The translations under genes were made by a program, and so were the position numbers. This document shows positions 7,789 through 8,213 of a stretch of 10,290 nt of DNA, one piece after another. The stretch's first letter is position 1; each line of letters starts with the position of its first letter. Source of the stretch: a virus; the UHGV virus genome UHGV-0301654. One strand, written 5' to 3'. The notes beneath the pieces are model-generated. The model saw only the letters and a program-made list of their open reading frames with translations. It was not told the DNA's origin and made no database searches.

Positions 7789-8213
7789 AAACGTCCACCA
7801 TTCCCACCCTTCTGGGGCCGGACGGCATGACATCGCTGCGTGAATATGCCGGTTATCACGGCGGTGGCAGCGGATTTGGTGGGCAGTTGCGGGCGTGGAA
7901 CCCACCGGGTGAAAGTGTGGATGCAGCCCTGCTGCCCAATTTTACCCGTGGCAATGCCCGTGCAGACGATCTGGTACGCAATAACGGCTATGCCGCCAAC
8001 GCCATCCAGCTGCATCAGGATCATATCGTCGGGTCTTTTTTCCGGCTCAGTCATCGCCCAAGCTGGCGCTATCTGGGCATCGGGGAGGAAGACGCCCGTG
8101 CCTTTTCCCGCGAGGTTGAAGCGGCATGGAAAGAGTTTGCCGAAGATGACTGTTCCCGCCGTCACATGCCGGGACCATCACCGTGTATGAAGACTCCCGA
8201 CCCGGTACGCTGA
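7785..8213 (+). pseudogene. B: portal protein B, N-terminal fragment of about 122 codons
   Basis: [53 protein letters not shown]... matches the lambda gpB N-terminus up to ...KEFAEDDC at about 8150. The frame then runs 20 unrelated codons ([19 protein letters not shown]) to a stop because the DNA from about 8150 on is stf. Confidence 0.85.

Follow-up and report, generated by a model that had tools for sequence, protein, structure and literature searches.

The portal–stf join carried by the window (the whole 10,290-nucleotide stretch of viral genome UHGV-0301654 analysed here) was confirmed as a real deletion scar, in which a 5' fragment of a lambda-type portal gene (B) is fused out of frame to a 5'-truncated stf gene. 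The evidence presented below makes it very probable that this is an inherited, fixed and functionless scar in a cryptic Qin-type E. coli prophage, most likely of stepwise origin. The join now visible would most likely correspond to the secondary erosion of an earlier scar, as indicated by comparison with a longer allele found in E. coli O155.

Structure of the portal–stf junction

BLASTN searches against lambda (NC_001416) aligned positions 4951–8152 of the window with lambda nt 1–3203 (97.9% identity), and positions 8153–8862 with lambda nt 19848–20557 (85.9%). The gap between these two blocks in the reference is 16,644 bp and spans the rest of B plus C through lom, in agreement with the original prediction, which placed a missing head and tail morphogenesis block of about 17 kb at this point. 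The alignment split between positions 8152 and 8153, and no single gene aligned continuously across the interval 8130–8200. Over the longer interval 7785–9613, a split into two lambda blocks with a large gap had been anticipated; the large gap was found, but there were more than two blocks, because the stf remnant (stf') has a second internal deletion.

The lambda B gene starts at nt 2836, and nt 3203 is therefore the second base of codon 123, close to the codon (about 122) proposed for the portal breakpoint. The stf gene (orf-401) starts at nt 19650, and codon 67, which encodes the F of FPPSHAG, therefore begins with nt 19848; the value of about 53 proposed for the stf breakpoint was wrong by 14 codons. 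Portal codon 122/123 thus meets stf codon 67 at the join, and the sequence reads …GCC GAA GAT GAC TG/T TCC CGC CGT…, with portal codon 123 (TGT) completed by the first T of the stf TTC codon. In an independent search, thousands of E. coli portal genes aligned with the window up to position 8154 only, and in a second independent search, phage stf genes aligned from position 8153 only.

The two reading frames differ at the join, as expected from the original prediction and as borne out by the translations of both frames. The portal ORF (7785–8213) stops after 20 foreign codons, whereas the stf frame contains a TGA codon at 8147–8149, is open from 8150 and has its first possible start, a GTG codon, at 8183. 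The Pfam model Phage_portal_2 matched the 142-aa ORF over positions 2–93 of 354, and the phage_tail_N match in the stf frame started at model position 67 of 134. The portal sequence does not reach the full length of a lambda-family portal (PF05136, gpB, about 533 aa) and is a gene fragment; the stf remnant has neither a complete N-terminal tail-attachment domain (PF08400) nor a start codon. The features of the region are listed in Table 1.

Table 1. Features of the window around the junction, followed by the deletion classes sharing the portal breakpoint at lambda nt 3465–3470. Positions refer to the window; for the deletion classes, the loci or entries concerned are given, with their own coordinates in brackets.
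Feature	Position	Strand	Basis
cosN (GGGCGGCGACCT), corresponding to lambda nt 1–12; left end of the retained late-gene block	4951–4962	+	Sequence; start of the collinear lambda alignment
nu1/nohA-like small terminase gene, intact, 181 aa	5140–5685	+	Pfam Phage_Nu1, model 1–164 of 164, E = 2e-101
Large terminase gene A, intact, 641 aa	5660–7585	+	Pfam GpA_ATPase and GpA_nuclease; 97.9% nt identity to lambda A
gpW gene, intact, 68 aa	7582–7788	+	Pfam gpW, model 1–66 of 66
Last portal-derived DNA: gene B codons 1–122 plus 2 nt of codon 123	7785–8152	+	End of lambda alignment; Pfam; 100% identity to NWU_3
142-aa ORF: 122–123 portal residues, then 19–20 out-of-frame residues	7785–8213	+	Translation
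TT common to both parental sequences; crossover somewhere within 8152–8154	8153–8154	+	Limits of portal and stf matches; parental sequences
stf' segment 1: begins at stf codon 67 and includes the Ala/Ser-rich shaft; the join lacks a start codon	8153–9486	+	Lambda 19848–20557; phage_tail_N 67–134 of 134; 100% identity to NWU_3 over 1334 nt
Second junction, inside stf', with TA overlap	9487–9488	+	Collinearity with the NWU_3 locus (L001) breaks at 9489 (from the left) and 9486 (from the right)
Final 41 codons of stf	9489–9613	+	Translation; match to the C-terminus of the NWU_3 fusion protein
Tail-fibre assembly gene, tfaQ-like, intact, 191 aa	9613–10188	+	Pfam Caudo_TAP; lambda 21847–22538 at 94%; tfaQ annotation in related genomes
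Class with right endpoint inside B, lambda 4089	L033 (left endpoint 4646–4652), P0005		
Class with right endpoint in C, lambda 4447	L043		
Class with right endpoint in D, lambda 5878	L047		
Class with right endpoint in FI	L038 (3940–3950), P0024		
Class with right endpoint in FII, lambda 7671	L039 (3454–3459), L044–L046, L048, L050		
Class with right endpoint in a J-like tail-tip gene	L036 (5640–5650), P0033		
Class with right endpoint at lom site a, in frame	L017 (GPEC1405; 6228–6235)		
Class with right endpoint at lom site b, 232 bp further	L018 (NT1F10 and 9 other pig or cattle strains; 7115–7122)		
Class with right endpoint at stf codon 14, lambda 19692	L001 (NWU strains; 9510–9516)		
Class with right endpoint in tfa, lambda 22288	L031 (1303–1310), L032, L042		

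A longer allele and the order of the deletions

Both halves of the query were present in the E. coli O155 strains NWU_1, NWU_3 and NWU_4, at a distance 418 bp greater than that in the window. In NWU_3, the portal gene continues to lambda nt 3465 (codon 210) and is joined in frame to stf codon 14, the whole being annotated as a 1328-aa CDS (WP_278233982.1). The window sequence corresponds to the NWU_3 allele minus the 418 bp at 9254–9671 of locus L001, and its endpoints lie outside those of the NWU fusion by 262 bp on the portal side and 159 bp on the stf side. The two alleles have the same flanking DNA and genes on both sides, with no mismatch to NWU_3 in 1905 nt (571 nt of W and the portal fragment B', and 1334 nt of stf'), whereas the next-closest relative, GPEC1405, had 46 mismatches over these flanks (6 + 40). 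Unlike the window, the NWU allele has the additional 262 portal and 159 stf nucleotides, is in frame and retains a 1740-bp distal segment of stf.

We infer the order of events from this nesting and from the sequence identity. A deletion of about 16.2 kb would first have fused stf codon 14 in frame to portal codon 210 (nt 3465), and a 418-bp deletion across this first junction, with a TT overlap, would then have generated the present out-of-frame join. The distal half of stf would have been removed by a separate in-frame deletion of 1740 bp, to which we assign no place in this order.

The lambda alignment, taken alone, would also fit a single illegitimate event removing about 16.6 kb between portal codon 122 and stf codon 67, with the NWU fusion as an independent deletion in a sister lineage, and such recurrence is made plausible by the independent deletions of the same block in other strains described below. 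However, the complete identity of the flanks to those of NWU_3 and the proximity of the endpoints of the two alleles argue against this explanation: by our own rough estimate, two deletions of about 16 kb so close to each other in one very young allele would be a coincidence of about 1%. We therefore consider a single event unlikely. The one-step deletion of about 17 kb envisaged in the original prediction most likely did not occur, given that the NWU-type allele differs from the window by a 418-bp deletion spanning the older junction.

The stepwise origin also provides the parental sequences of the second deletion, GATGACTG/TTGCTGC for the portal gene and GGAAGGA/TTCCCGCC for stf, which share TT only. 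It had been suggested that short microhomology at the join (gactgtt/ggtttcc) pointed to illegitimate recombination. This overlap is really TT, and the chance of an overlap of at least 2 bp in a random join is about 16% (our own calculation, (n + 1)(1/4)^n(3/4)^2); microhomology does not exceed chance and the overlap therefore says nothing about the mechanism. The attribution to illegitimate recombination stands nevertheless, because there is no longer homology at the endpoints, the parental sequences being known. The second step would thus have been an illegitimate (RecA-independent) recombination event, by slippage or end-joining.

In the NWU strains, cueO directly adjoins the terminase gene A (L001 6611–6761, NWU_3), nu1 is missing and the right end of Qin then follows. 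Such an arrangement implies that the chromosome underwent a large rearrangement or that more DNA was deleted from this prophage.

Occurrence of the scar in independent assemblies

All 10 loci recovered, which came from NCBI isolate drafts, ENA gut metagenomes and Logan assemblies, contained an identical 60-nt junction. Assemblies with the window-type join include GCA_038073935.1, GCA_019370145.1, GCA_900480455.1 and GCA_900480265.1. The exact 142-aa protein, including its frameshifted tail, was found on 17 contigs and in 41 index blocks of a public assembly collection, with NCBI entries SQR96761.1, SQS77916.1 and SRY82919.1. The contigs reached 287 kb for the recovered junction loci and 591 kb for those encoding the exact protein. 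The join was absent from 5426 complete E. coli genomes, and an exact-junction scan of the GTDB species representatives (one genome per species) yielded no match; its lineage distribution is known from drafts and metagenomes.

Short-read assemblies of E. coli are often broken or mis-joined at lambdoid prophages, which are repeated within a genome, and the absence of the join from the complete genomes would be compatible with an assembly or chimeric-contig artefact. However, at least 10 loci, obtained in different projects and with different assemblers, had the same junction and 142-aa ORF, and they include the large contigs mentioned above, with consistent Qin or host flanks, and an overlap of 2 bp is far below the k-mer length at which mis-joins arise. 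The probability that the join is an artefact is therefore negligible.

The 11 window-type copies differed by 8 SNPs and no indels over positions 7785–9613, and the stf' frame was open in all of them. The window-type allele is young.

The retained genes and the stf remnant

The block from cosN through nu1, A and W (4951–7788) was found to be intact, with about 98% identity to lambda, although all other head genes are gone. It could still be a source of terminase, or a partner for recombination with lambdoid phages that enter the cell.

On the other side of the join, about 445 stf codons are kept. Phage stf matches ended at position 9488, and comparison with NWU_3 revealed an in-frame loss of 1740 bp (580 codons) at 9487–9488, including the distal and receptor-binding part of the fibre, such that no contiguous distal region is left. 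Neither the first 66 residues nor the distal half of the fibre is thus encoded by the remnant. To the right of this second junction, the identity to NWU_3 falls to 98.1%.

An antisense ORF of 309 aa (8452–9381, minus strand) runs across the Ala/Ser-rich shaft of stf, and it is this antisense ORF, at a length of 245 or 296 aa and without a Pfam hit, that the gene callers used for public assemblies annotate in place of the stf remnant. The ORF at 8452–9381 is probably a by-product of repetitive GC-rich codons. Within the tfa coding sequence, positions 9956–10154 (plus strand) matched the Rfam family IS009 (RF02111) with 226 bits, above the gathering score.

We also considered whether the join might be functional, either as a portal–Stf fusion produced by programmed frameshifting or as a domesticated 142-aa stub, acting for instance as a dominant negative against head assembly by superinfecting lambdoid phages. 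In favour of a function, the portal and stf parts of the precursor allele are fused in frame and carry a single CDS annotation, cos-nu1-A-W and tfa are intact on either side, and the stf' frame is open in every copy. However, no slippery heptamer was found by reading between the stf-frame stop at 8147–8149 and the portal-frame stop at 8211–8213, stf' is without its first 66 residues and 580 internal codons, and no promoter or terminator signal near the join exceeded the shuffled expectation. The low variation reflects the youth of the allele rather than demonstrated constraint and, with only 8 SNPs among the 11 copies, it has no power either to show neutral decay or to exclude selection on the remnants. 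A function for the fused or truncated product is therefore very unlikely, and we retain the interpretation of the join as a functionless scar.

Genomic setting and recurrent loss of the head and tail genes

In most carriers of the scar, the gene order is Q-like antiterminator, cold-shock gene, holin, lysozyme, Rz, cold-shock gene, gnsB, ydfO and ynfO, followed by nohA, A, W, B', stf', tfaQ, pinQ, ydfK, ydfJ, ydfI and ydfZ. This is the position of the Qin prophage of K-12, the order nohA…tfaQ-pinQ-ydfK being found in loci L004 and L009–L011. One locus (L005) has the identical junction but a Rac-type right flank (uspF, ompN, ydbK). The window itself ends just past tfa, and its left 4 kb match a prophage linked to att-lambda/bio, not Qin. 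Over its first 7173 nt, it shares 99.9% identity with a rearranged prophage of strain Z0117EC0098, which has bio/ybhB and a GGDEF gene as neighbours. Between the start of W (7582) and position 9486, it is identical to the NWU/Qin-type allele, and positions 7582–10290 as a whole are identical or near-identical to Qin-type alleles. The window is a chimera of two prophage backgrounds, with the switch between them presumably located in the shared terminase region.

A segment of about 3 kb in the left part of the window (451–3537) contains two alternative tail-fibre C-termini and two tfa genes, and is bounded by 38-nt inverted repeats (451–488 and 3500–3537) resembling Gin/Pin crossover sites (TTCCTGTAAACCGAGG…). 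In a metagenome contig (L007), this segment has the opposite orientation, and it looks like an invertible segment that is still flipping. The adjoining invertase gene (206–424, minus strand) is only a 72-aa N-terminal resolvase fragment, and inversion would therefore need catalysis in trans, for example by a pinQ-like gene; in related loci, such a gene begins just to the right of where the window ends.

The Qin prophage of K-12 (the nohA-stfQ-tfaQ-pinQ end, next to ydfJ) occupies the same chromosomal neighbourhood as most scar carriers and has lost the same head and tail morphogenesis block; it is 93% identical to window positions 4013–5668 and 98% identical to positions 9484–10290. However, its deletion begins in codon 3 of A (lambda nt 719) and ends in the 3' part of stf (stfQ), whereas the window allele keeps A, W, the 122 portal codons and about 445 codons of stf, and is thus less eroded and has another junction. 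The block was also lost in strain MLI105, by a deletion from A (nt 2619) to lom', and in strain LZYWN_4, by a deletion from B (nt 3267) to the 3' part of stf. These independent deletions with other endpoints, in Qin-like and lambda-like prophages, indicate that loss of the head and tail block is a recurrent form of decay. The decay of prophages by deletion, and the 'domestication' of defective prophages, were reportedly described by Bobay, Touchon and Rocha (PNAS, 2014). The window has the corresponding features, namely a large deletion of structural genes, flanking modules that are kept and truncated ORFs at the scar, and is the same in kind. The scar is an instance of ordinary prophage decay, a well-known process, to which the present case adds a documented nested series of alleles.

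A recurrent breakpoint in lambda-family portal genes

The portal breakpoint of the precursor allele, at lambda nt 3465–3470 (codons 210–212, …GAG GAC GGG TAT/CCTGG CTGG), was common to at least 10 deletion classes, all extending rightward but differing in their right endpoints (Table 1). This stretch of DNA is absent from the window because the 418-bp deletion removed it. The events in L036 and L038 can be considered independent, because their portal lineages are only about 78% identical to lambda. Where the right-hand parent was known, the overlaps at the joins were TAT, TA, TAT, CC, CGGGTA, ATC, TATC or none, always built from the end of …GGNTAT(C). In a survey of truncated portal proteins, the genuine fusion endpoints located elsewhere within residues 98–305 were singletons. 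By a rough Poisson estimate, the probability that 10 of 27 classes would share a single 3-codon window is about 1e-9 after correction.

We also searched for deletions on the two sides of the site. A left-anchored scan of viral contigs recovered 8 contigs in four rightward classes, whereas a right-anchored DNA scan of the same collection revealed no leftward deletion from nt 3465–3470, only a 1-nt indel. A survey of portal C-terminal proteins for leftward deletions returned mostly full-length portals and, apart from these, only a split ORF. With rightward classes found and leftward ones absent, the hotspot looks one-sided. A 20-nt left anchor used on the GTDB species representatives gave chance matches in unrelated genes and intact Kluyvera portals, and the anchor was lengthened in later scans. 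We tentatively trace the first of the deletions that led to the scar to a one-sided hotspot for deletions in lambda-family portal genes, one not described before, an origin that we rate at slightly less than even. A literature search on a portal deletion hotspot or on junction variants of Qin found nothing relevant.

The breakpoint sits on a CCTGG (Dcm/EcoRII-type, CCWGG) site. The recurrent classes could have started from a fixed top-strand 3' end at TAT^CC, left by a nick, by stalling of the nascent strand or by a one-ended break, and followed by microhomology-primed rejoining. Dcm, Vsr or EcoRII were not favoured as the cause, as no classes with a fixed left end were seen at the other CCTGG (nt 3302) of the portal region surveyed, and fourteen other endpoints lie 22–683 nt from the nearest CCWGG. 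The portal fragment of NT1F10 (L018 6955–7122) extends exactly from the CCTGG at lambda 3302 to just before the next one at 3469, which is what cuts at both ↓CCWGG sites would leave; this may be a coincidence, given the number of endpoints examined.

A hairpin at the breakpoint was not supported by DNA folding, which was no better than for shuffled sequences (z = -0.4 and -0.7). No portal class truncated by an insertion sequence (IS) was identified, and there was no IS end at or near the site in any recovered locus; the idea of an IS survives this absence, because excision would remove the element. The deletions associated with the IS excision enhancer (IEE) in E. coli range from a few nucleotides to more than 40 kb, have one end at a fixed element boundary and show microhomology joins (PMC9943667). 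They resemble the fixed left end of the portal breakpoint, a candidate analogy that does not extend to the 418-bp deletion of the window. However, unlike in the IEE model, the portal pattern is one-sided and free of IS, and the IEE/IS model gives no reason for one-sidedness. CRISPR/Cas3, a Pin (gix) site, a relaxase nic site (YATCCTG/Y) and Chi were also discarded, since their positions or directions did not fit in a comparison by eye. No explanation for the recurrence of the breakpoint was found among those examined.

Indels of 1 or 2 nt were observed exactly at both CCTGG sites of portal genes (P0016, P0053, P0069, P0088 and P0094; L051 4551–4570), with the P-series examples mostly in megabase-sized contigs. 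We take the P-series indels to be probable long-read basecalling errors at Dcm-methylated sites and not real frameshifts.

Implications

The scar itself matters little, since it adds one further route to the loss of head and tail genes from a Qin-type prophage, and public databases already contain the truncated ORF. Nevertheless, the three alleles (intact, NWU-type and window-type) suggest that a deletion scar can erode further, and a present-day junction need not therefore record the original event. The recurrent portal breakpoint is of more interest than the scar and deserves follow-up. If the hotspot is real, it would point to a site-specific nick, a stalled 3' end or a one-ended break, followed by microhomology-primed rejoining downstream. 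Silent prophages would then carry a site-specific DNA lesion or stall, and this portal site would offer a natural, sequence-defined system for large illegitimate deletions in bacteria.
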